Of a DNA stretch of 64,000 nucleotides, positions 1,165 through 64,000 are shown one piece after another. A program made the position numbers and the translations under genes. Below the pieces are notes generated by a model. That model saw only the letters and a list, made by a program, of their open reading frames with translations, had not been told where the DNA came from and did no database searches. Position 1 is the first letter of the stretch. Each line of letters starts with the position of its first letter. This DNA comes from Octopus sinensis (lineage: Eukaryota), in assembly GCF_006345805.1 (NCBI RefSeq), contig NC_043009.1, positions 26,536,001 through 26,600,000 on the forward strand. The letters run 5' to 3'.

Positions 1165-2566
1165 TCATCATCATCATCATCATCGTTTAACGTCCGTTTT
1201 CCGCGCTAGCATGGGTTGGACGGTTCGACCGGGGTCTGGGAAGCCAGGGGCCGCTCCAGGCTCCAGTCTGATCTGGCAGAGTTTCTACGGCTGGATGCCC
1301 TTCCTAACGCCAACCACTCTGTGAGTGGAGTGGGTGCTTTTTACGTGCCACCTGCACAGGGGCCGGGGGGGCCAGTATCGGTCACGATCGGTTCGAGCTT
1401 TTAACGTGCCAGCGGCACGGGGGCAACGGGATCCGGGGTACTTTGAATGGGTAGGGGGTATGTGGAATTGCTGCAGAAAGCAGCCCGGGTCTTTGCAGTC
1501 ACAGTATATCTCCAGAGATCTCGGTCCTTCGCCATTGCCTCAGTGAGGCCCAATGCTCTGAGGTCATGCTTGACTACCTCATCCCATGTCTTCCTGGGTC
1601 TACCTCTCCCCCTGATACCTTCAACTGTTTGGGAGTGGCACTTCTTCACACATCTCTCTTCATCCATCCGCAGCACATGACCATACCATCGCAAGCGTCG
1701 CTCTTGCACACCACATCTGATGCTTCTTATATCCAGCATTTCTCTCAGGATGCTTACACTCTGTCTTGCATGCACACTGACACTACACATCCAGCGGATC
1801 ATGCTAGCTTCATTTCTTTCAAGTCTACGCATGTCCTCTGCAGTCACAGCCCATGTTTCATTACCGTGAAGCATGGCAGTTCGTACACATGCATCATACA
1901 ATCTACCTTTCGCTCTGAGGGAGAGACCTTTTGTTGCCAGTAGGGGTAGGAGCTTTCTGAACTTTGACCAGGCTATTTGTATTCTAGTGGTGATACTCTC
2001 TGTGCATCCACCTCCGCTACTAACTTGGACACCCAGGTAGCGGAAACTATCAACTACTTCTAGTTTCTCTCCCTGGAGTGTGATGGAATCTGTATTCTGA
2101 GTGTCTGTTGTGTCTATTGTCCCTGTGCATCTGCCGCACATGAAAGCTATCTTATCTGTTAATTTCCCTTTAATGTTGCTGCACCTCTTATGTGTCCATA
2201 GCTTACATTGGGTGCATCTTATGGAGTTTCTACCTGTACCTTTCCTACAGATTGAGCAGGGCCACCTACCCGAGGGGGTGTGTGCTGAGTACCTCTTGCT
2301 GCTTACTAATACTTTGGTCTTTGCTACATTTATTCTAAGGCCCTTTGATTCTAACCCTTGCTTCCACACCCAAAATTTCTTTTCTAGTTCCGGTAGTGAT
2401 TCTGCTATGAGAGCTAGGTCATCGGCATAGAGGAGCTCCCAGGGGCATCCCGTTTTGAATTCCTCTGTTATTGCCTGAAGGACTATGATGAATAAAAGGG
2501 GACTGAGGGCTGAGCCCTGGTGCACACCTACTTCTACCCGGAATTCTTCACTATATCCTAACCTTA
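1165..2566 (-). mobile_element. 5'-truncated RTE-clade non-LTR retrotransposon (C-terminal RT, 3'UTR, (GAT)n tail)
   Basis: ORF 1401-2603(-) contains GVHQGSALSPLLF, YADD (2418-2429), LEVVDSFRYLG and RRLRWYGHV..GRGRPRKTW, typical of RTE RT and C-terminus; tail at ~1165-1185. Confidence 0.93.
1401..2566 (-). pseudogene. RTE reverse transcriptase C-terminal half, open frame, with embedded PHD finger
   Basis: About 388 uninterrupted codons; the first ~12 aa of the listed ORF are microsatellite. C-x2-C-x10-C-x2-C-x4-H-x2-C-x14-C-x2-C at 2127-2258. Confidence 0.88.
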
Positions 2567-2934
2567 TGTATATGTGTGTGTGTATATATATATATACACA
2601 CATATCTGAGTGGTCTTGTTTATATTAGTTTTGTGTTTTGCATACATCATAACTATGTCTCCATATATGAAGAAGGAAAGGAATATTTTAAAAAGCATGC
2701 AAGGATATAATTGTATCATTTCGTTATTTGGAGAAGAAAATTTATGGAACAGAACAAAACTTGCAGAGATTACAGTAATTACAAAAGAGAGGAAACAAAT
2801 GAAACCATAAGAATTGAATTAGATTTTACACCACTTCATCACTGTTTCTCATCATCCATCTACTTTCTACGTCAACCATTCACACTTTCTGGAACTAACC
2901 CCTAAATGTCCCGTATCTCTTGCTCAAATGGTAA

Positions 2935-13742: not shown

Positions 13743-16700
13743 TTGGATGTCGATGGCAGCAATGAGTGTGCTTTTCGACTGATAGCAGTTTATGCTCCGT
13801 CCTTAACAGGCCGACCAGATTTCTTTCGACGTCTAGAGTCTTTCATGGGAACGTCTCGTCCTTTACTTTTAGTGGGGGATTGGAATGCACCCTGGGACAC
13901 GCATCTAGACTACGTGGGCAGAGATAGCAATTAGAAGGGGATGCAAATGCCTCAAAGACCTGCTCAGACGTTTCCAAATGTCTGACAGGTACCGACTGGA
14001 CCACCCGAATGTGCCAATGTGGACATGGAGTAACCGCATCGGGTCGTCCAGATCATACTTAGACAGAGTATTCTGTAGGACAATAGATAAAAATAGTGTA
14101 GGTTGTCCAACAATTTCATATAGTCATTTACACAGATCACAAGTTTGTGACTTGTACACTTGACTTAGATAAGACACATAGGCAGGGTCCTGGTTACTGG
14201 AAACTGAACGCGTCTTTTACAGCACGACAGGTTACAGGACCGGATCAGCACATTAGTTAAGAGAGCTTTGACGGGTACCATCATCAACAACAGATGGTGG
14301 TATGCCCTAAAAAAAGCGATGATTAAAGCAGAATCAGTCAGATACAGTAGAGCCTTAGCATTAGACCGAAATAGAATAGAGGGAGAATTAGTTAAGGTTT
14401 TAGAAGAGGCACTTAGAACTGGCATCGCGTCCAACGTACTGGCGGCGAGATTGGCCCTCGACCAACACCTCAACGCCAAACACGAGGGATGCGTTGTCAG
14501 AGCTAGGATGCGTGCTCTGAGGAACGAAGGAGTTGGAGCCGCCCAAGAGGCCCGAGTGGTGGAGACGCAACGAGGCAACAGAGCCACCATCAAGTCTCTT
14601 ATAGATGAACAGGGGCGCGAATTGCTCGAGCCTAAAAGGATGTGTGGGGTTTTCAACAAACACTTCACCCAACTGTTTGGGACAAGTGGTGAGTCAGAAA
14701 GCAGAGTGGACTTTAGTGCCTACCTGCATGCCTTGCCACGACTCTCAGCAAGGGGTGAAGTCTTGTGAAAGCCTATCACAGCTGCGGATGTACAGGATGC
14801 GATGGTAGGCTGCGCGAGAGACAAGTCACCAGGCTTGGATGGTCTGCCTACGAATTTTTATTTCATATGCCAGACTTGTTTGGAGGCGTCTTGGCAGCTG
14901 TCTACTGCAACTGGCAGCAGCAGAACGGGAGTATTCCTGCTTTTGTAAAGCGAGGAGCAGTGGCACTGATCAAGAAAGACCCAAACAAGGGGGGACGTCA
15001 TAGATAATTTCAGGCCCATCACTCTGCTCAACGCAGATTTGAAAATTTTGGCCAAGGTGTTAGCCGAGAGGTTGGCGCTTGTCATCAAGAAACTAATCGA
15101 CAAGGCGCAAACATGCGCCGTGCCGGGTAGAAGTATTCATGACAACCTCCATCTGATGCGCTACATCTAGACAGGGTAGTTAGTTAGACGAGGCGGGGAT
15201 GCGGGAGGAGCGTGTCTGCATACGCGGATGACGTCACCGTCATAGTGTCGAGCTACGAGCACATCGAGTGGTCGGCGAGACACTGAAAGAATACGAAGCG
15301 GTAACGGGAGCAAAAATTAACCGGGGGAAAAGTCAGTGGGCTTGCGGCTCGGCACCTGGGAAGAAGCAAGCCCATGCCGTCCAACAGCGTTCCATCGTGG
15401 GACGCTGGACGGACGGACCGGTTAAATTGCTCGGGGTCTGGTTCGGTCCGGACTCCAAATGGAGAAGAAATGGGGCGAGATAACGACTAGGGTGGCTACT
15501 CTCACCCAGAAATGGAGAGAGAGAAAAGCTATCCCTAAAAGGTCGGGCGGAGGGGGCCGAACGCGTACATCGCACCGTCATCGAGTATCGTCTGACCGTC
15601 GGCTTGTCCCGACCCTACCATCACCAAACTGGAACGCATTACTCTTCCGCTTCTGTGGAAGGGAAACGTTCCGATGGTTAGGCGATCCATTGCTGCCAAC
15701 ACCCGCTAAATGGAGGGCTGGGCATGCCGTGGTGGGTTGATGATGCGCAGACATTTGAGTTGAGACTGCGACATCTCCGGCGCTTCATAGACAACGGTGA
15801 ACAGGGGTGGTCGCCTTTGTGCGGCGCGCTTTCCCGCAGCTCGTTTCCTTGGACGAACTACAGTCGGATCAAGCAGAGGACCGAGGCTAGGCGAATGGCA
15901 CCGCGAGTGTCGCGTTGCTCTCAAGCAAACTCTGCCGTCCGGGATCGAACTTGTGCGACTCCATCACAACAAAGGCATTCTATAGAGGATTAGTGGAGGG
16001 GAGGTGCGACGACGAACTCGGGCAGAGTCTGGGCGTCGACGAGGAACACCTGACCCGCCTGTTCAGGACAACTTTCGGGCCGCGGGACCTATGAACAATC
16101 ACCAAAGATCCCTGGCCTGGCAGTAGTGCTATCGAGAAGCATTACCTGTTCGGGATAAGCTCTACAGACACGGTTCCAGACACACTGGACCGACTTGCCC
16201 GAGATGCGGTCAGAGCGACGAAACCGTTCTGCAGCAACGTGCGTGCAATGTCCAACCATTTCCGGACCTGTGGGCTTATGCCGAACGGCTGCTGCTGTCA
16301 CGTGTGGGACGAATCCGGCCTATCGGCCGAGTCTATCGTGAGAATTGCTCCGCCCCCTTCCCTCAACCGGGAAGGCAAGGCAGTTTTCATCGTACTGGTG
16401 GCCATGGTGAAAGAATGTGTGTGGTGGACTCGAGCGAAAGGATTAGAGACAAACACTTACCTCTCTGGCCAATCGCTCATCAACTTTTTCAAGTACCACT
16501 TGAAAAGGAAGGTGAGAATGGAGAGGGAAGTTTTGTCTCGCGAAAGATTCAAAAAAAGATGGGTGAATGTTGCAAAGATGGTGCGTGCTAGTAACGAAAC
16601 CATTTTGAGCATGATCCTGTAGATCGTAACAAAGGAAAGAAAGAGAGCATTTTTGACCTCATGTGTTTATTTCCTCCCGACTGGGGTTCCCGTGGTCTTT

Positions 16701-19582: not shown

Positions 19583-20712
19583 TGTTTCTTTATTAGCCAC
19601 ACAGGGCTGCACACAGATAGAACAAATTACAAGGTAGAGCTTTTCTTTTGAAGGTTTTTAAAATAAAAAAAAATAAAAAATAAAAAATAAATAAAAAATA
19701 AAAAAAAATTTAAAAGAAAGGGGGGGGAGTCGATCAAATCGGATAGCGAAAAGAGAGAGAAAGAGGACAAAAAAAGGGGGGGGTTAAAAAAAAAGGGGGA
19801 GAGGAAAAAAAATTGATCAATAGGGATCGTTATCACAGAAATGTCAATATGAAGTGTAAAGGGGAGGACAGGTGAGGTTTAACCGTGGAAGAAAAGCCTA
19901 CGGAAAAGACCACGGTAACCTCGGTCAATGAAGTCACATGTTATATTCTTTTTTTTTTTTTTTTTTTGCAAATAAGCAACTCTCTGTATTAATTTTTACG
20001 GTCATAGAATCATAGTCAAGGTGACTTCGTCATTCATACGTGCCATCCTTGCTACATTCACCCATTCTTTTTTAAAACATTCACTAGACAAAACTTGCCT
20101 CTCTACTCTCACTTTCCTTTTCAAGTGATACTTGAAGAAGTGATGAGAGATTGACCAGAGAGGAAAGTGTTTGTCTCTAATCCTTTCAGACGCGTCCACC
20201 AGATACATTCTCTTCGCCATAGCCACAAGTATGATAAAAATAGCTCTTCCTTCCCGTTTGAAGGAAGGAGGCGTGACGATATTAACGATAGACTCGGCTG
20301 ATAAACCGACACGTCCCACACGTGACAGCAGTCGTTCGACATAAGCCCACAGGTGGGAAATTGCTGGACACTGCACGATTGCGTGCAGAACGGTTTCGTC
20401 GCTCTGCCCGCATCTCGGGCAGGTCGGCCGTGTTTCTCGAGCCATGCCTATAGAGCTTATCCCGAACGGGTAGCGCTTCTCGGTAGCACCGCCAGGCCAG
20501 GGATCTCTGGAAGTTGTCCATAGGTCCCGGGCCGAAAGTCGTTTGAAAACAGGCGGGTCAGGTATTCCTCGTCGACGCCCAGGTTTGCCCCGAGCTCGTC
20601 GTCGTACCTCCCCTCCACTATCCCCTATAGAATGCTTTGGTTGTGTTGAAGTCACTCAAGGTCGACCCGGGACGGCAGAGTTGCTTGAGAGCAACGCGAC
20701 ACTCGCGGTGCC
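19583..20712 (-). mobile_element. 5'-truncated Tx1 LINE (second subfamily) with complete 3'UTR and AATAAA
   Basis: CPRCGQSDETVLHAIVQC..FKYHLKRKVRVER..MIL* is homologous to 15896-16622; AATAAA at 19589-19594; (TATC)n on both sides. Confidence 0.92.
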
Positions 20713-25918: not shown

Positions 25919-26314
25919 TATATATATCTATATATATATATATATATATAATTGTTTTGTTCCGATGACTTATCGTTACTAAGAAGTAAACGTAGGATAT
26001 AGTATGAACTTGTAAAGTAAGCATTGAAGTGTCGTTACTCTCTGCATTTCATAGCGAATTTTCGGTCTTGCAAAATCGTCTTGCCGTATAAGTCGACCAT
26101 TTCTTTTTTCTTTTTACCTTTTTCTGTAAATTTTGGCTTGAAAAATTCAATGAAGTTGAACTATAAACAGAATTTTAGTTCGTGCTTGGTTGTAACTCTC
26201 TGGTTTCAATGACTGCCTGAAATACTTTGTGACGTTGACATAGAGAAAACCCAATTGACATCACAGTTCTATATTTAAGAAATTATGTACATTATTTACA
26301 TTTGCCGGATTTTT

Positions 26315-26360
26315 AACACAACGTTTCGGCTGATATACCCTCCAGCCTTCATCAGGTGTC
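26315..26360 (-). ncRNA. Minimal type I hammerhead ribozyme motif (Penelope-type)
   Basis: gacac CUGAUGA a ggcug[gaggguauau]cagcc GAA ACGU U guguu: complete core, stems I and II pair, palindromic AACGUU stem III. Confidence 0.8.
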
Positions 26361-26432
26361 TTGGGGAAATTTCGATAAGGTATTTTTTAAGTTGTTGTTG
26401 TTATTGTTGCTATTATTATTATTATTATTATT

Positions 26433-27255
26433 CTATGTTTGACTTTTGCTTTATATGTGTACAAGTTGGCTCCAAGTCTCACCCAGAGACCTCAAGAGAC
26501 AAACAGGGTTGGAAGAGGTTCATGTTGTGTTTATGCCTAGTGTGCCATGATATTTGGGGGGTGGGGATGGTGTACTAATGAATGTCAAAAAAAAAAAAAG
26601 TTTTTTTTTTTTTTTTTTTTTAAACCGAAAATTATGTTTGTTTTAAAACCTTGAGGTTACATAGAGAGTATTTTGCGTAGGATATGAGCAGGCAGTTTCC
26701 ATGAGCACTATCTTTTGAACTTCTGCCATTTTTGGGTTTCCTGGTATCTGAGTTAGGTAGCTATCAAGCCCTTTTGCTATCATTCCCAGGGCACCTATGA
26801 CAACAGGTATTGTTTTAGTCTTCAGCTTCCACATTTTGCTGATTTCTATTTCAAGATCTTTATATTTGCTCAGTTGTTGGTAGTCCTGACAGATACGTTT
26901 ATATCGATTGGGACAGTCATATCAATGAGGAGGCATGTTCTTTGTTTGAATTGTCTTTCAATATGATTTGTCTGGCCTATTTGCATCTATTTCTTGTCAG
27001 TTTGAATGTTGTTGAAGTTCCAGAGTGGAGTGAGATGTGGTCATTTTCAAGCAATGGGGGTGGTTTGTGTTCCCACCAGTTTTTTTCATGGGGCAAATCC
27101 AGGTTTTTACCAGATTACCCAGTGAATATATTGTGCAGCTCTATCGTGCCTGTTGAGATACTCTGTAGGCGCTAGAAGACTGCACTTGGAGACCACATGG
27201 TCAATGGTTTCATTTTGTTGCTTGCATACACGACACGTTGGACTGCTTCTGATCT
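26433..27255 (-). mobile_element. R4/Dong-like RLE non-LTR retrotransposon 3' fragment in (TAA)n
   Basis: CRVCKQQNETIDHVVSKC zinc motif, RHD, RPD, LLIDMTVP, KYKDLEIEISKMWKLKTKTIPVVIGALG (with frameshifts); (TTA)n on both flanks. Confidence 0.88.
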
Positions 27256-36567: not shown

Positions 36568-36842
36568 AATTATATATATATATATATATATAATATATAT
36601 ATATATATCTAGTATACAAGATAAGAAATGGAGAAATACATCTAAATCAAATATCAATTACCAGATAATACTCAATCACACTTTATTAAACCACCACATA
36701 AGAGACTGTAGGGTTAAACATAAAAAAGCAGAACAAATCAGTGTACATAAAGGAATGTACATAAAAAAGTGTACATAAAAGAGTAATGTTGTATAATAAG
36801 TAGAATATATATAAAAAAGAGAATATAAATATAAGTATAGAT

Positions 36843-36975
36843 TACATCTTACAGCTGTTTCGGCCATGTAGATAAGTATGTCTCATTTTACTAATATTAG
36901 CCTTTTATGATAGGTCAATATATAGGTATAAATGAGACATTTACAAAAATATCATAAGGCCTCTTCGGAGATATA
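36843..36975 (-). ncRNA. Type I hammerhead-like motif with ~100-nt stem II insertion and U4C core variant
   Basis: uauaucu CCGAAGA ggcc[~95 nt]ggcc GAAA cagcug UA agaugua; 7-bp stem I. Confidence 0.62.
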
Positions 36976-37139
36976 CATATACATATGAGTGCATATACTC
37001 ACACTCCTATACATATAAAAATATACATATACATAATAATGTAAATAAATAATATAAATTAGTAAACATATATATGTTCCATATTCAATGTTTCAGTTTT
37101 TCAACTTAATATTGTGGTAATAAACATACACATATTAGT

Positions 37140-37338
37140 ACCTAGATGCTGGCTTTGTGTAAAATACAGGAGTATCTGTTAATAATGGGTTTATTCAACA
37201 CATTCCCCTCTCAGATTGACACACATTGCAGCGGTCCTTCAGTTTTTCTAAGCCCTCTAAAAGAACTCGGAAGGTTGGGCCTCCAACCAGGCCTCTCGCA
37301 ATAACCTTAAAGCTAGAAAATGTTCAACATCCTCTCGT
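37140..37338 (-). mobile_element. Mariner-derived MITE
   Basis: TACGAGAGGATGTTGAA terminus followed directly by a transposase C-terminus (LEGLEKLKDRCN..NLRGECVE*). Confidence 0.65.
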
Positions 37339-43159: not shown

Positions 43160-44059
43160 TAATACAAAACTGGGGCAACAACACATCCAGACAGACGACA
43201 CAAAGAAAACAGTCGAGTTCCAGATTATCTTTGCAATTTCGGCTGGTTATACTTGAGATTGCTCCAATCTGACCAGCCCCAAGGAAAATCTAAGCTAAGA
43301 GCGTTAGATTCCTTGGAAGAAAGCAGCGAAAGTATACGAAAACAAGGACGGAAAAAAACGGAGAAATGTTACACAAATACAAAGAACAGGACATAACAAC
43401 AGGTGTATTTCGACTAAGGACGAATTAAATTAAGCTGACATGTGTGGAAGTAAAGCCTTACGGCAGGGACATAACATTTGATAGGTACAGGGAGGAATAT
43501 AGATGTTGCATGGATGGTAGTCAAACCAAGACGAACACCGGCCACGTGGAGAGAGAAGAGAGAGCGGTAGAGACAGAGGGATAGACGAATTAAGGAGGGG
43601 CGAGAAAAAATGAAAGGGACACAGTGAAGTGAAAGAGGAGGGAAAGTGAGCACGAAGAGAAGGCCAGGAAATATGAGAGAGGGGGAACGAAAGAACGAAG
43701 AGTGGAATCAACGAAGTAAGTGTGAAGGGGCTGATAGAAAGAAGGAAAGAATGAAAGAATAGAAAGAATAATAGAGTCGTACAAAATTTAGATATATTTA
43801 TATATAAGAGACCAAAGTGTACGTACACCGCTATATTTTATATATATAAAAAATACAAAAATGGGACAAGAACGCAAAACATCCAGACAGCTAGATGATA
43901 CAAAAAAAGGGACAGCAAAACATCCAGACAGACGATGCGAAGAAAACAATGATGGGTCATTCGGAGTTTATCAGCCCTTTCACGTTTACTTCGTTCATTC
44001 CACTCTTCGTTCTTTCGCTCTCCTTCTCTCAAATTTCCTGGCCTTCTCTTCATTCACTT
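43160..44059. mobile_element. Penelope-like non-autonomous element with partial tandem and inverted copies
   Basis: Family shared with 35990-36262; the start is repeated at ~43850; 43644-43736 is inverted at 43969-44059. Confidence 0.55.
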
Positions 44060-44812
44060 GGAATGGATAACCCAACATTTGTAAGTGGGGTGCCAGGATA
44101 GTTGAAATCAGCTTGCCTCGAACGTCTAATATTCCCATTAAGCTGTGCAAACAGAGGCATTTGGGACAATGTACAGGCGTTTAATTTCTGAACTTCACGA
44201 GCGATAATTGAACGAGGAGCATCACGAGATGAAATAGACTTTACTTTAATATTTAAAACTATTATCTTTGCATTTACCTCAACAGCAGTTGAAGTGTGAT
44301 TATGGATCCCAATCTTCTTAAGCTCTTTATAATTTTCATCTGCATGAAGTCTCGCCTTCCACAAACGATTTTCGCACCTCCAGTATATCTTCAATCCATC
44401 TGCATACTGCTTTTTTTTTTTGTGTATATATAATTTCCTTGATCGATCACTTTTATTTTTCCTTTCTCTGAAGTTATGATTTTGCAGGTAGTCATGTTGA
44501 TGGATTGGCGTATTGAATAAATTTAATTCGATTTGCTTGAAAGTCGTTGTTCGTAAACTCTTCGGGGCAGATACTTAAGAGAGAGATAGAGAGAGAGGTG
44601 GAGAGGGAGGTTTAAAAAATGAGAAAAAATATAACGGCGATTTTAATTATTAAGTGATTGTTCTAAGCTTTCCCACAAAAATTACATTTAAGAGTATTTT
44701 GGGACGAATTGGCCAGCGACGAATTGACCTGGGGATGAATTGGTCAACGAAGAATTGACCGGGGACAAATTAACTGACGACGAATTAGGTGGGGACGAAT
44801 TGTCCTAGCACC
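44060..44812 (-). mobile_element. Mutator-like (MULE) transposon 5' end with FLYWCH transposase N-terminus
   Basis: ATG at 44495: MTTCKIITSEKGKIKVIDQGNYIY (frameshift in A-run) ..KIYWRCENRLWKARLH..HNH; terminal array of ~15-bp GACGAATTG units at 44701-44812. Confidence 0.82.
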
Positions 44813-45649: not shown

Positions 45650-45749
45650 NNNNNNNNNNNNNNNNNNNNNNNNNNNNNNNNNNNNNNNNNNNNNNNNNNN
45701 NNNNNNNNNNNNNNNNNNNNNNNNNNNNNNNNNNNNNNNNNNNNNNNNN
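45650..45749. other. Assembly gap (100 N)
   Basis: Run of n. Confidence 1.
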
Positions 45750-46379
45750 CAGGTATGTATGTATGTCTATTCTCAAGATACAAAACATATCGCGTTTGTA
45801 CCGTAGTGGATGTACACCATCCGAAGCGTTGCTATAGAAACGACATGAAAATGTTTCATATATGTAAAAAATAAAAGGATGATTAAGAACCGAATATTTA
45901 AATTTATACAAAGGTATCATGCCACGAATCCGATACACTGTATTCGACACAAAGCAAATAACAGCTTTGTCGATGTCCCTTCTTCAGCGAGTTTGAGAGA
46001 AATACGGTAAATGTTTCTCACCTTTCCTGTATCAGAACTCTAATGCACAAATAAGATGGAGGTGTTATTTTCGTTGATTACAAAATTTCAAAGCAATATT
46101 AGATATTAAACTCAACAGATTTCTTTTCTGATACAAAACCCAGCCAATAGTGAACATTGTACAGAAGCTCACAAAAGAAAATTCATAAACAAAACCAAAA
46201 CAAAACAAACAATTGAGTATTCGAACTGAAGTGTGCGTAAACATATGTCTGGTGTTTGTAGTATACTGTGTATGCGTGTGTGCCTCTCTGTGTATATATA
46301 TATATACATGAAGGTGTGGGTGTGTGCTGTAGTTATAGATGGGTAGGGAGGAACATGGCGGTTCATTTTGTGTGTATTT

Positions 46380-48329: not shown

Positions 48330-48376
48330 GACCGTGACTGCGTAGTTTCGGTTTATCAACCGTCATCAGACTGATC
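48330..48376 (-). ncRNA. Minimal type I hammerhead ribozyme motif
   Basis: gauc-a-gu CUGAUGA c gguu[gaua]aacc GAAA cu[acgc]ag UC ac-gguc; GUC cleavage triplet; all three stems can pair. Confidence 0.72.
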
Positions 48377-56153: not shown

Positions 56154-56787
56154 CAAGAGTAACAGCAACAACAACAACAGCAATCACGAAATAATTTGTC
56201 TTCCATCTTCCATAATTCTATGAGTAATAAATAATTTGTTGCAAAGGCACAAGATTTCTTTTTGAAAAAGAAGCTATTAAACTTCTTCCTTTCTTTCACT
56301 TTACCCCTTCCTTTCTTTTTTCCTACTCATTCTTCTCTCGTGCTATCTTACAATCACCTTTCCCCTCCCCTTCTCCCTTATTCTCTCCTCTTTCTTTTTT
56401 CTCTTTTACGTTCTTCCTCTTCTTTTACACGTTCATTCTTCTTTTACTCGTTCTTCCTTCATTTCATTCCTTCCCTGTTTCCTTATTCTTCCAATTAATT
56501 ATTCCTTCGCTTTAGCTTTTACCTTTGAAATTTGCAATTTCTTCTTGTTTCAAGCTTTTCTCCTTCATTCATTTTTATTCCCTGACTTTCCTGTCTCTCT
56601 GTTTCCCAGTGAGTCTCTGCGCGTGCGTGTGTGTCTTCCTGTCTGTCTGTATGTCTTCCTGTCCGCCTCTCCATCTCTGTGCGTGTGTATTTTCCTGTCT
56701 GTCTGTGTATCTTCCTGTCTTTCTATCTCTTTCCTCTTTCCTTCCAAGCATCCCCTCTCACTCTTCCTTTACCCTTTACTTTTTTAT

Positions 56788-57005
56788 TTGCTTCAGTTAT
56801 TGGATTGCGGCAATGCTGGAGCACCAGCTTGAAGGATTCAATCGACCAAATCTACACGGTTTCTGTCTACCAAATCCGCTTAAAAGGCGGTGATCAATCT
56901 GAGCTTATTGTAGAAGACACTTGCTCAAGGTGCCTCGTAGTGGGTTTGAACCCGAAATCACATAGTTGCAAAGTAATCTTCTTAACAACAGAGCCATGGC
57001 TGTGT
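56788..57005 (-). mobile_element. Internally deleted SINE family A
   Basis: atgctggagcacc..ttctgtctaccaaatcc..gtagaagacacttgctcaaggtgcc. Confidence 0.75.
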
Positions 57006-57288
57006 TGTGACCATGCCTGTAGCTTTCTTTTTTTACTTTTAACCGCTCTTTCATCTATTTTTCTTTGTCATTCTTTCATTTTTATCTTCCTATATGTGTA
57101 TGGCCGCGCGTGCGTAAGGTGTGTGTGTGTTGTGGGTCTGTCTGTTTGTCTCTTCCTGTTTGTCCATCTCTTTCCTCCTTTCTTGTATTGTTTCTGTTTT
57201 TTTTTCAACTTTTCTTACGCTCGTTTCTTTTCGGCATTTATTCGTTCCCACACTCTATCAAATTTCTTTCTTTTCCTCATCAGTATAT

Positions 57289-57322
<34 letters not shown>

Positions 57323-57388
57323 ATTACATCCATAGTATATATATGTATATGCGCGCGCGCGCGCGCGCGTGTGTGTGTGTGTATGTAT

Positions 57389-57436
57389 GTCTCTGATGAA
57401 GGGATATCCGTAATATCCCAGAAACAGCTGTAAGAC
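57389..57436 (+). ncRNA. Minimal type I hammerhead ribozyme motif
   Basis: gucu CUGAUGA a gggauau[ccgua]auauccc a GAAA cagcug UA agac; predicted cleavage after 57432. Confidence 0.82.
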
Positions 57437-57499
57437 TATTTCATTATAAATGTCATGAAAACTCCTCACAGCCTTGGATTTATTATCTCATTCTGTCTA

Positions 57500-57543
<44 letters not shown>

Positions 57544-58757
57544 CTTTATGTATGTATTTTATATCTGAGGAAGGAACTGGTTTCTAACAAAGAAATAAAA
57601 TTCCATCGTTGGAATGCTGATAACAAATGCAAATACTTAAAATTTAAGAAATCCCTTGCATACATTTACTGTTCCCCTTACAGGTTGTATTTGTAATGTA
57701 CGCGTTGACTGGTTGAATTCTTTTACTAACTGTCCTCGTTTATCCAGATTGTCACTCAAGCGTTTACTCACAAAGCCAAGTGTACCAGATATTATTGGTA
57801 TAAATGTGAATCTATAATCTGGGGATAGAAGCTAGAGGTTTCGAAGCAGTTGCACGTAGTTATCTTTTTTTTCTTTGATTTTCATTCTTTTATTCTTTTA
57901 TTTTCATTCTTTCATTCGCTCCATTCTCTCGTTCCCACTGTCCCTTATTTTGCTTCATTCTCTCATACTCTCTCTTCGTTTATTCCCTCGTTCCATCCAC
58001 TCTTTCATTTACTCCAGTCTTTTAGTCGCTCCGTTCTTTCATTCTTGTTATTATCTCATTCTCTCTATTCCTTAACTTCCTTCATTCTCTCATTCTCACC
58101 ATTCTTCTTTCATTTCTTCCATTTTTCCTTACCCTCTATTCTCTCATCCCTTCATTCCTTCATTCTCCCATTCTCTCATTTCCTCCATTTCTTCATTCCT
58201 CATTCCATACAATTTCTCTCAGTCTTTTTTTTTTTTACTGTCCCCATTATCATATTTTTCCGTTCTGCAGTATATTTTAATATTTTCTTTTATATTTGTT
58301 TCAGTTTGCTTTCTTTTTTTAGTTTTTATTTCAATCAACTTATTTATTTATTTATCCATTTTTTCTGTGGAAATTCTTGATAATTTATTTCCGTCGTCTG
58401 CCAAAGATATTCAATAACAGTGACACGTATTCAGGTAACCCAGTTTATCTACGTCAATCTCAATTCGAAACTACGTTCTCAACGACTGCAGCTTGTACCA
58501 ACGGAATATTAATGCTAAAGAAATGCAAAGTACAAACACCCCACCACGCATACATACAAACACATACATACACACATGCATACATTCTATACACCGACAT
58601 ATTCCATCGTATGTGCACATACATATGTATTCATTTATATACACAATCATAGACACACAGTCACTCATACAAACAATTGCATTCTCGCATTCATGCAAAC
58701 TTTCATTTATTGATACATAATTACAAAATACAGTGATGCATATATACATATACATAG

Positions 58758-62276: not shown

Positions 62277-62321
62277 CCAAGCTAGCTAGCTAGCTTGCAA
62301 TGTGCGCATGTCTCTGTAAAA

Positions 62322-64000
62322 AAAATTAGTAAACTATCAAAGACTATCAGGCAAAAATTCTGGGTCATCAATTAGAATTAAAGGGGGATCAGCTAAGAAG
62401 CGTTTAGAAAATTGGTCAACCCATTTAAAAAACCTCCTTGGGAAGAATGCCAAAATCCCTGATAACCCCACTCTTCCAAGTGTGCCTATATCAGACATGC
62501 TGGACATCAACACCTCCCCTTTTACCATATTTGAACTAACAGCAGCCACCAAGCAACTAAAAGCCTCGAAAGCATTTGGTCCCGACAACATCCCAGCTGT
62601 AATTTGGAAGGATGATAGATTTCACACACTTTTGCTCAACCTCTGCAACCACACACTTTCCACCTTTGTCGCTCCAAAGATTTGGCACCAATCTCAAATT
62701 CCAGTACCCAAAAAAGGCGATTTATCCCTCGTCACCAACTACAGGGGCATATCTCTAATGTCAATTGCTGCAAAACTGTACAACAAACTGATCTTAAATC
62801 GTCTTGTCATTTTTGTTGAACCTTTGCTCCGAAAGAACCAAAATGGATTCAGACATGGGCGCTCAACGCTGAGCCAGATACTATGCCTACGCAGACTTAT
62901 TGAAGAATCAAAAGCATTTAATCGCGATCTTGCAATGGTATTTGTAGACTTTTCTAAAGCGTTCGATTCTGTAGATAGGTACAAGATGTTTGAAATCCTT
63001 AAGCTCTATTGGATACCCAACAAATCATTTCTGCCATCAAGGTCCTCTACACAGATACGTCTTCAACCATCTTAACCCCTGACGGAGAAACATCATCTTT
63101 CTCAATCAAAGCCGGAATACTGCAGGGAGACACACTCGCCCCATTTCTTTTCATCATTGTTGTTGATTATGTGCTACGTATGTCATTTGATACCATCTCT
63201 GCAAGGGCTTTGAAATAAAAACCAGAAGTTCCAGACACCCAGCTGAATACTTGACAGACACTGACTTTGCTGACGACATCGCTCTTATCAGTGATTCCTC
63301 TCCAATGCCCAGTCTCTTTTACAATCTCTTGAACAAGCCTCAATTGTGTAGGTCTTTACCTCAATGAGGCCAAAACTGAATACATAAACAAGTGCCTGTC
63401 CAACAGTGATTGCATCATCCATACTCTCAACAATGCGCCCTTAAATATGGTTTCTGATTATAAATCTTGGGTCATACATATCATCATCTGGAAAAGACTT
63501 TCTAACTAGAAAGGGTATGGCCTGGTCAGCCTGTAATGACATGCATAAGATCTGGTTATCAAATCTAAGTAGAGACTTCAAACTTGAAATCTTCAAAGCC
63601 ACAATCGAACCAATTCTACTATATGGCTCAGAAACCTGGACGTTATCAAAGAAGCTTGAGAGGCGGTTGGATGGAACCTACACTCGCCTCCTTATGAGAG
63701 CTCAAAATCTCTCGTGGAAGCGCCATCCAACCAAAATGCAAATATATGGGAAACTACCACATGTGTCATCTCTTGTGAAAGGTAGGAGAGTCCAGTTTGC
63801 TGGACATTGTTGTAGAGCTGAAAAAGAAGTAATTTCTACTCTTCTCCACTGGAAGCCATCTACTCGCAATACCAGAAGGCGCACACTCTCCTACCCTGAT
63901 GTAATCTCTAGGGATACAGGCATCCAGCAACAGGACCTCCGTAATGCCATGATGGACCGTGAAGTCTGGCGTAGCATGGTAAATTCCATTGTCTCGACCA
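62322..64000 (+). mobile_element. 5'-truncated RTE-clade LINE, frameshifted RT
   Basis: KAFGPDNI, PKKGDLSLVTNYRGISL, QNGFRHGRST, FVDFSKAFDSV, GILQGDTLAPFLF, FADD (~63266-63277), LLYGSETWT, QFAGHC, MMDREVWR; runs to the window end; no PHD insert. Confidence 0.93.

Follow-up and report, generated by a model that had tools for sequence, protein, structure and literature searches.

A hammerhead motif between microsatellites of Octopus sinensis is probably the truncated 3' end of a Penelope-like retrotransposon

A hammerhead ribozyme motif lodged between dinucleotide repeats raises the question of whether the short unit that carries it is a mobile element in its own right or the leftover of a larger one. 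Such a motif lies at 57389-57436 of the 64,000-nucleotide stretch of Octopus sinensis DNA analysed here (the window). Comparison of its genomic copies leads us to conclude, with a probability of about 0.9, that what remains at 57389-57500 is the 3' end of a truncated Penelope-like retrotransposon, probably of the Hydra clade, likely left there by halted reverse transcription. The motif is thus real and its origin ordinary, one more octopus family in a known class. The locus is made up of the following parts.

57284..57388, no strand assigned: 5' flank of the form (TA)n-(CG)n-(TG)7-(TATG)n, non-family sequence (copy comparison)
57389..57436, plus strand: type I minimal hammerhead motif (sequence reading and strict descriptor)
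57437..57500, plus strand: rest of the element 3' end, up to the common terminus of the family (..CTGTCTAA) (copy comparison)
57501..57542, plus strand: TA(CA)20 tract (copy comparison)

The motif contains the CUGANGA, GAAA and UH core together with helices I and II. Stem I pairs GUCU (57389-57392) with AGAC (57433-57436) over 4 bp, the CUGAUGA box occupies 57393-57399, and stem II pairs GGGAUAU (57401-57407) with AUAUCCC (57413-57419) over 7 bp. The GAAA box follows at 57421-57424, the palindromic stem III ACAGCUGU spans 57424-57431, and the UA at 57431-57432 places the predicted cut site at 57432/57433. The stem lengths and the palindrome had been correctly described in an earlier note on this DNA, whereas the 'perfect core' of that note needs qualification: CUGAUGA, GAAA and UA are all in place, but A57400 and A57420 are left unpaired, one on each side of stem II. 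Consequently, the G10.1-C11.1 pair does not adjoin G12, and a pair directly beside G12 is absent from the whole family as represented by 226 pattern matches. The long helix II, the short helix I, the unpaired base between positions 9 and 10.1 and the palindromic helix III nevertheless agree with the minimal hammerheads of Penelope-like elements, which are type I with a helix II of 7-8 bp, a helix I of 4-5 bp, an unpaired base 5' of helix II and a palindromic helix III in the available text of Cervera and De la Pena (2014, PMC4209133). The attribution to the minimal hammerheads of the Penelope type, with a palindrome that lets dimers form, therefore stands. According to the same text, such hammerheads mostly occur as single copies, which it attributes to truncated elements, pairs on opposite strands are separated by 100-700 bp, and one genome may hold several unrelated families, all of which is likewise seen here.

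The copies themselves reveal what the unit is. In the microsatellite-rich, 2.72-Gb genome searched, a 115-base query of the unit gave 2,557 candidates. Scores were computed for 40 of them, whose 39 non-self matches are 93-96% identical, and 30 loci were fetched. Exact matches to a 34-letter pattern number 226 genome-wide (114 + 112), against 0 for the control. All 29 non-self fetched loci have a common 3' end and scattered 5' ends, and all of them continue upstream past the position of 57389 for at least 21 nt, several for 600 to more than 870 nt (one extension value, 1,496, is inflated by a microsatellite). Among the first 30 pattern matches in genome order, 28 run at least 11 nt upstream, one begins at the motif edge (L197) and one is an inversion junction inside the motif. 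Similarly, a downstream 30-mer has 25 copies, all examined, and their 5' ends fall anywhere between the cut site and points more than 800 nt upstream of it. Of these copies, 14 end no more than 75 nt from the cut site and a single one (L222) exactly at it, and cleavage-defined 5' ends were accordingly rejected as a rule (1/25 copies). Stubs that start at or beside the motif edge were observed three times, namely in the window copy, L197 and a second copy in L004. The window copy, the only member of its family in the window, has its 5' truncation junction at 57388/57389, and this start, 44 nt upstream of the cut site, means that it is not a cleavage product. Short stubs are common, yet they do not define a small unit of constant extent. 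The copies suggest that the stem II hairpin stops or switches reverse transcription, in which case short stubs would be expected to be frequent. In four of the 25 copies (L206, L210, L216 and L223), the 5' base of stem II is the point of termination or fold-back.

The flanks of the window copy are equally particular to it. The ~110-bp unit had been described as lying between complementary tracts, and (TG)7 upstream and (CA)20 downstream are indeed there, but what they enclose is a truncation stub rather than a unit. Out of 60 copies sampled (two samples with 2 loci in common), the window's own is the single one that has flanks with TG upstream plus CA downstream, and pairing of the (TG)n and (CA)n flanks as a designed feature was rejected on this count. 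Since copies bearing a tail contain a TA/CA-rich tract between terminus and tail, 57501..57542 may be either target or element-derived. In addition, TGTATGTAT at 57380-57388 recurs at 57549-57557, a low-complexity match and a weak candidate for a target duplication.

Walking upstream from the hammerhead leads through ~1.3 kb of microsatellite- and pyrimidine-rich UTR into a GIY-YIG coding region. Conversely, in 30 loci chosen on GIY-YIG coding DNA alone (one being the query), a same-strand hammerhead lies 1.5-1.8 kb downstream of the GIY-YIG segment in 10, in loci that span only ~2 kb. The locus L098 contains, in order, an inverted hammerhead with UTR, a reverse transcriptase (RT; GGFYRDD), GIY-YIG, UTR and a hammerhead 88% identical to the window copy. 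The RT fragment matches a 720-aa RT/endonuclease protein (35% identity, E 9e-26); in the Atlas, neighbours of that protein bear HTH_animal, RVT_1 and GIY-YIG. The best protein match of the fragment is an Octopus bimaculoides protein (75%). Pfam returned nothing above its cut-off for the degenerate ORF pieces and 16 homologues, with a sub-threshold RVT_1 match (E 0.023) and no GIY-YIG match, and a PDB search gave one weak match to a retron RT (E 0.005). All ORFs of the family that were seen are broken, the fetched loci include no intact full-length copy between two direct terminal repeats, and no N-terminus with the RWK and DKT motifs was recovered from this genome; among 16 long homologues, DKT is present in all and RWK or RWR in 13. 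The window itself gave no tblastn match to 40 homologous proteins, which agrees with the earlier observation that it holds no Penelope ORF. The same note had taken 57389 for a tiny independent non-autonomous retroelement and had named, as the outcome that would speak against this, that the motifs be terminal fragments of Penelope elements. The linked ORF and the scattered 5' ends identify 57389 as exactly such a 3'-terminal Penelope-like fragment, and 36843 looks alike. Two features of the parent element may be added: at L061:6100-7300 most of the RT has been deleted internally while GIY-YIG, UTR and hammerhead are kept, and many copies have an Asn/Thr-rich insert before the CxCX5C linker.

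Within the Penelope-like elements, the parent probably belongs to the Hydra clade, a call based on motifs. Across the 30 loci, CxCX5C is found in 13 (four first matches in microsatellite frames were dropped), CxxC in 19 and CxH in 21 (2 doubtful), the latter two flanking the late E and N, and between the GIY- and YIG-like boxes there is only one Cys, hence no inner CCHH. A C-terminal GIY-YIG without inner CCHH, a CxCX5C linker, CxxC and CxH near the end and a hammerhead near the 3' end are likewise features of the Hydra clade in the sections of Craig et al. (2021, PMC8557442) drawn on here, which also give a (TA)n neighbourhood for the clade. In the 57389 family, (TA)4 lies just downstream in 21/30 and 13/30 copies, but a short TA run belongs to tail-bearing copies themselves. 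The optional tail is 120-140 bp long and occurs in sense orientation in 5/30 loci, and inverted 5' partial copies are found in L003, L021, L098 and L099; the inverted partial copies and the optional tail are further Penelope traits. One octopus member of the clade, Hydra-1_Obim of O. bimaculoides, is listed in those sections with a length of 2,507 bp and a (TA)n preference. Its hammerhead sequence differs from that of the 57389 family, which, unlike Hydra-1_Obim, has a 1.3-kb microsatellite-rich 3' UTR and an RT that is homologous but distinct by eye; ORF and UTR together exceed the '<3 kb' usual for Hydra elements. Judged by these sequences, the two families are separate.

A distinguishing mark of the 57389 family is the extra A between helix II and GAAA, which is rare among the hammerheads of PMC4209133, where AGAAA appears in 1 of the 56 rows of the Fig. 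S3 text. A base precedes GAAA in all 226 pattern matches, being A in 96 of the 100 listed, and the pattern version lacking this base has 0 matches. A also occupies the position in 60/63 aligned copies. The extra A beside GAAA, and with it the unpaired A on both sides of helix II, is a fixed trait of the family. A literature search outside the subscription journals found nothing on the extra base as such; in two Hydra hammerheads listed in PMC8557442 (aJap and cRog), helix II is likewise flanked by an unpaired base at either side, and by this precedent the two-sided arrangement is a known variant. Core and palindrome are intact in 36 of the 63 copies. No compensatory base changes occur in stem II among them, and the structure is therefore derived from the match to a known motif and not from covariation.

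By prediction, the lone 57389 copy would cleave RNA weakly or not at all. As a monomer, the motif adopts the hammerhead fold with a probability of 0.0015, and within its own flanks the window copy reaches 0.0 for stem I and 0.35 for stem II, whereas the homodimer adopts the double hammerhead as its minimum-energy structure (-30.7 kcal/mol). The ACAGCUGU duplex has a predicted energy of -11.1 kcal/mol. Published minimal hammerheads, in the excerpts available, show no cleavage as monomers and only weak cleavage as dimers, even linked ones. As a separate observation, family sequence downstream of the motif (57470-57495) is predicted to pair with core and stem II (57395-57420) in competition with the hammerhead.

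RNA sequencing runs matching the window stretch itself are not listed. In a related species, reads over a 57389-family copy are thin (190-280 per 12-13 million records), run equally in both orientations, are not locus-specific and form no piles of read ends or circle joints. This is a weak test, as reads of another species from fragmented libraries do not show absence of cleavage.

Published elements provide a framework for how the stub could have arisen. According to the available part of PMC11167929, Penelope proteins introduce nicks into AT-rich DNA and initiate reverse transcription from two internal positions, yielding an optional tail, and the anole hammerhead needed the element protein for cleavage, was dispensable for insertion in vitro and had no RNA-seq ends at its cut site. 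By analogy, the parent protein would nick AT-rich or (TA)n DNA, element RNA would be copied from its 3' end, mostly incompletely, and a reverse transcription halted just past the ribozyme would have left the 57389 stub. In tandem transcripts of the parent, two hammerheads would pair through the palindrome and cleave slowly, possibly with the assistance of the element protein, and it is this tandem transcript that the ribozyme may have served. Lacking a promoter region as well as a partner in cis, the solitary 57389 copy is likely an inert passenger.

Three more hammerhead motifs had been reported from the window, all on the minus strand, opposite to 57389.

36843..36975, minus strand: hammerhead variant of a second family, ~36610-37230 (sequence and copy comparison)
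26316..26360, minus strand: minimal hammerhead of a third family, in a headless SINE-like copy at ~26265-26433 (sequence and copy comparison)
48330..48373, minus strand: old, decayed hammerhead of a fourth family (sequence and copy comparison)

The presence of several hammerhead-bearing repeat families beside microsatellites is confirmed by these loci. That they are four unrelated hammerheads is correct in so far as several different families are present, but 36843 shares the 15 bases GAAACAGCTGTAAGA with 57421-57435, hence the four are not all unrelated, and 36843 and 48330 both fail the strict descriptor.

In the second family, CCGAAGA replaces CUGANGA, a 4-bp GGCC base of stem II encloses a hairpin of 92 nt, stem I has 7 bp, and the palindrome is again ACAGCUGU. 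A CCGA core can be active, as is known from viroid work. The search gave 2,255 candidates, the best 39 non-self copies being 92-98% alike, and CCGA is found in 18 of 20 fetched loci that were chosen by likeness to the query, the other two being otherwise changed and none having CUGA. The family has a common upstream sequence over 1.2 kb, and in 8 long loci no ORF was found directly upstream. It is a young repeat and likely also a Penelope-like 3' end, a link for which the evidence is one inverted piece in L168 that joins the UTR of the 36843 family to a GIY-YIG end.

The third family is a SINE-like element of ~330 bp, composed of a tRNA-like head, (AAT)n, a minimal hammerhead and a fixed 3' end; a 34-mer of the family recurs exactly at least 1,459 times. 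The head is taken to be tRNA-like on account of its A- and B-box motifs, to which this label is owed, as Rfam gave no tRNA match for it and ARAGORN made weak calls only, none at normal thresholds. Among the first 25 copies, 10 have the head in sense orientation and 9 have it inverted (13 have any), inverted heads being a Penelope-like trait. The hammerhead region is abundant in RNA-seq of another species, on both strands equally, and no sites with many read ends were seen on a family copy there; the gap in head reads coincides with a skipped repeat, and these data, being from another species, do not show absence of cleavage. Among the four, 26315 alone fits the description of a non-autonomous ribozyme retroelement. 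Hammerheads are also known from the SINE-like elements of schistosomes, which are of the Sm-alpha type. Their order of a promoter-like head followed by a hammerhead, as given in the accessible part of PMC6765202, fits the 26315 family and not 57389; the octopus family differs from them in its minimal Penelope-type hammerhead and its frequent inverted 5' head copies. A tentative and rather unlikely proposal is that 26315 is a tRNA-headed SINE mobilised by Penelope-type enzymes and not by LINEs, as its Penelope-type ribozyme and inverted 5' heads would indicate, and that in 36843 the CCGA core and the 92-nt insertion are fixed while the palindrome allows cross-family cleavage with 57389. The 3' end of a LINE ORF, presumably of the restriction-like endonuclease type, lies just upstream of the 26315 element at 26640-26800 on the minus strand.

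In the fourth family, the window copy has a mismatch in stem I and a broken palindrome. It has 25 candidates, and its relatives are 68-91% alike, some with intact stem I and palindrome.

It could be argued that 57389 is a Penelope remnant still active in trans, with read-through transcripts, including those of the 36843 family, cutting each other or host RNAs. The duplex is identical in both families, each has thousands of candidate copies, core and palindrome survive in many 57389 copies, and family RNA occurs on both strands in a related species. Nonetheless, this is highly improbable: the predicted 57389/36843 heterodimer forms an 8-bp duplex and neither stem I, whereas both homodimers, that of 36843 included, fold as full double hammerheads, stem I does not form in the flanks of the window copy, expression in the related species is low, and published minimal hammerheads are weak or, in one case, need the element protein. 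Trans-dimer cleavage between 36843 and 57389, as proposed earlier, is thus permitted by the shared palindrome but not favoured by a heterodimer without stems I or by loci on opposite strands, and the proposal that intronic copies cut host pre-mRNA finds no support in a window where no host exon was recognised.

A further reading holds that the 110-bp unit is a mobile non-autonomous retrozyme, which its hammerhead would cut out and which would then form a circle and insert anew into microsatellites. Non-LTR retrozymes do have type I hammerheads in short non-coding repeats and have been proposed to derive from Penelope terminal repeats, according to the available parts of PMC7229834 and Li et al. 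(bioRxiv 10.64898/2026.07.22.740005), and the frequent short stubs, the one copy that starts at the cut site and a few same-strand pairs 295-1,383 bp apart among 100 listed matches could be read in the same way. However, retrozymes in those sources are tandem, defined monomers that give circular RNA, whereas 57389 is a solitary stub from a family with variable 5' ends; in place of tandem 150-450 bp monomers the window has one copy, same-strand pairs elsewhere are rare, and an end set by cleavage would fit 1 of 25 copies. The scattered 5' ends, the start of the window copy upstream of the cut site and the reads of relatives, which cross the site both ways without end piles or circle joints (weak evidence, given species and libraries), also speak against it, and the linkage to an ORF largely refutes it, leaving it barely credible. 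A chance match in a low-complexity genome, for which CTGANGA alone at chance level (23 in the window against 23.9 expected) and the lack of a hammerhead match in Rfam (none for 57384-57500 at E<=10, none among 150 listed of 232 matches in the whole window, these being microsatellite look-alikes) could be cited, is refuted by the full descriptor, which matches the window twice (57393 plus, 26355 minus), whereas 200 Markov simulations averaged 0.01 matches and never gave 2, and by the location of the motif in a terminal repeat of an RT/GIY-YIG element, the published place for motifs of this kind.

With 57389 read as a Penelope-like 3' stub, several hammerheads per 30 kb are to be expected in a genome rich in such elements. 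In the closely related literature, 30 recently active Penelope families have been annotated in Octopus vulgaris, with ribozymes unmentioned in the available text of PMC13282606, and the listed rows of Cervera and De la Pena (2014, PMC4209133) include no cephalopod. Outside the subscription journals, Craig et al. (2021) was the only work found on cephalopod hammerheads, and no published description of the 57389 family was found; with Repbase likewise outside the search, the family may be catalogued already. The A·A junction at the helix II base, the CCGA long-helix variant and the SINE-like family provide natural substrates for Penelope hammerhead function, which are useful because the published ones show weak cleavage and insertion in vitro proceeded without them. 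If the 26315 family is truly a SINE driven by Penelope enzymes, it would be of interest to transposon specialists.

As for the rest of the window, its ORFs of at least 110 aa are, by eye, transposon pieces or microsatellite frames, and no host exon was recognised among them, while small exons are possible. Pieces of RTE-like and Tx1/L1-like LINEs and of a Mutator-like transposase were noted by eye at 1401-2624 (minus strand), 14208-14768 and 16095-16622, and further pieces of the same set at 20002-20655 (minus), 44050-44574 (minus) and 62320-63075. An assembly gap of 100 N lies at ~45650-45750, and the sequence at 56780-56900, ~500 bp upstream of the 57389 motif, resembles a cephalopod SINE.
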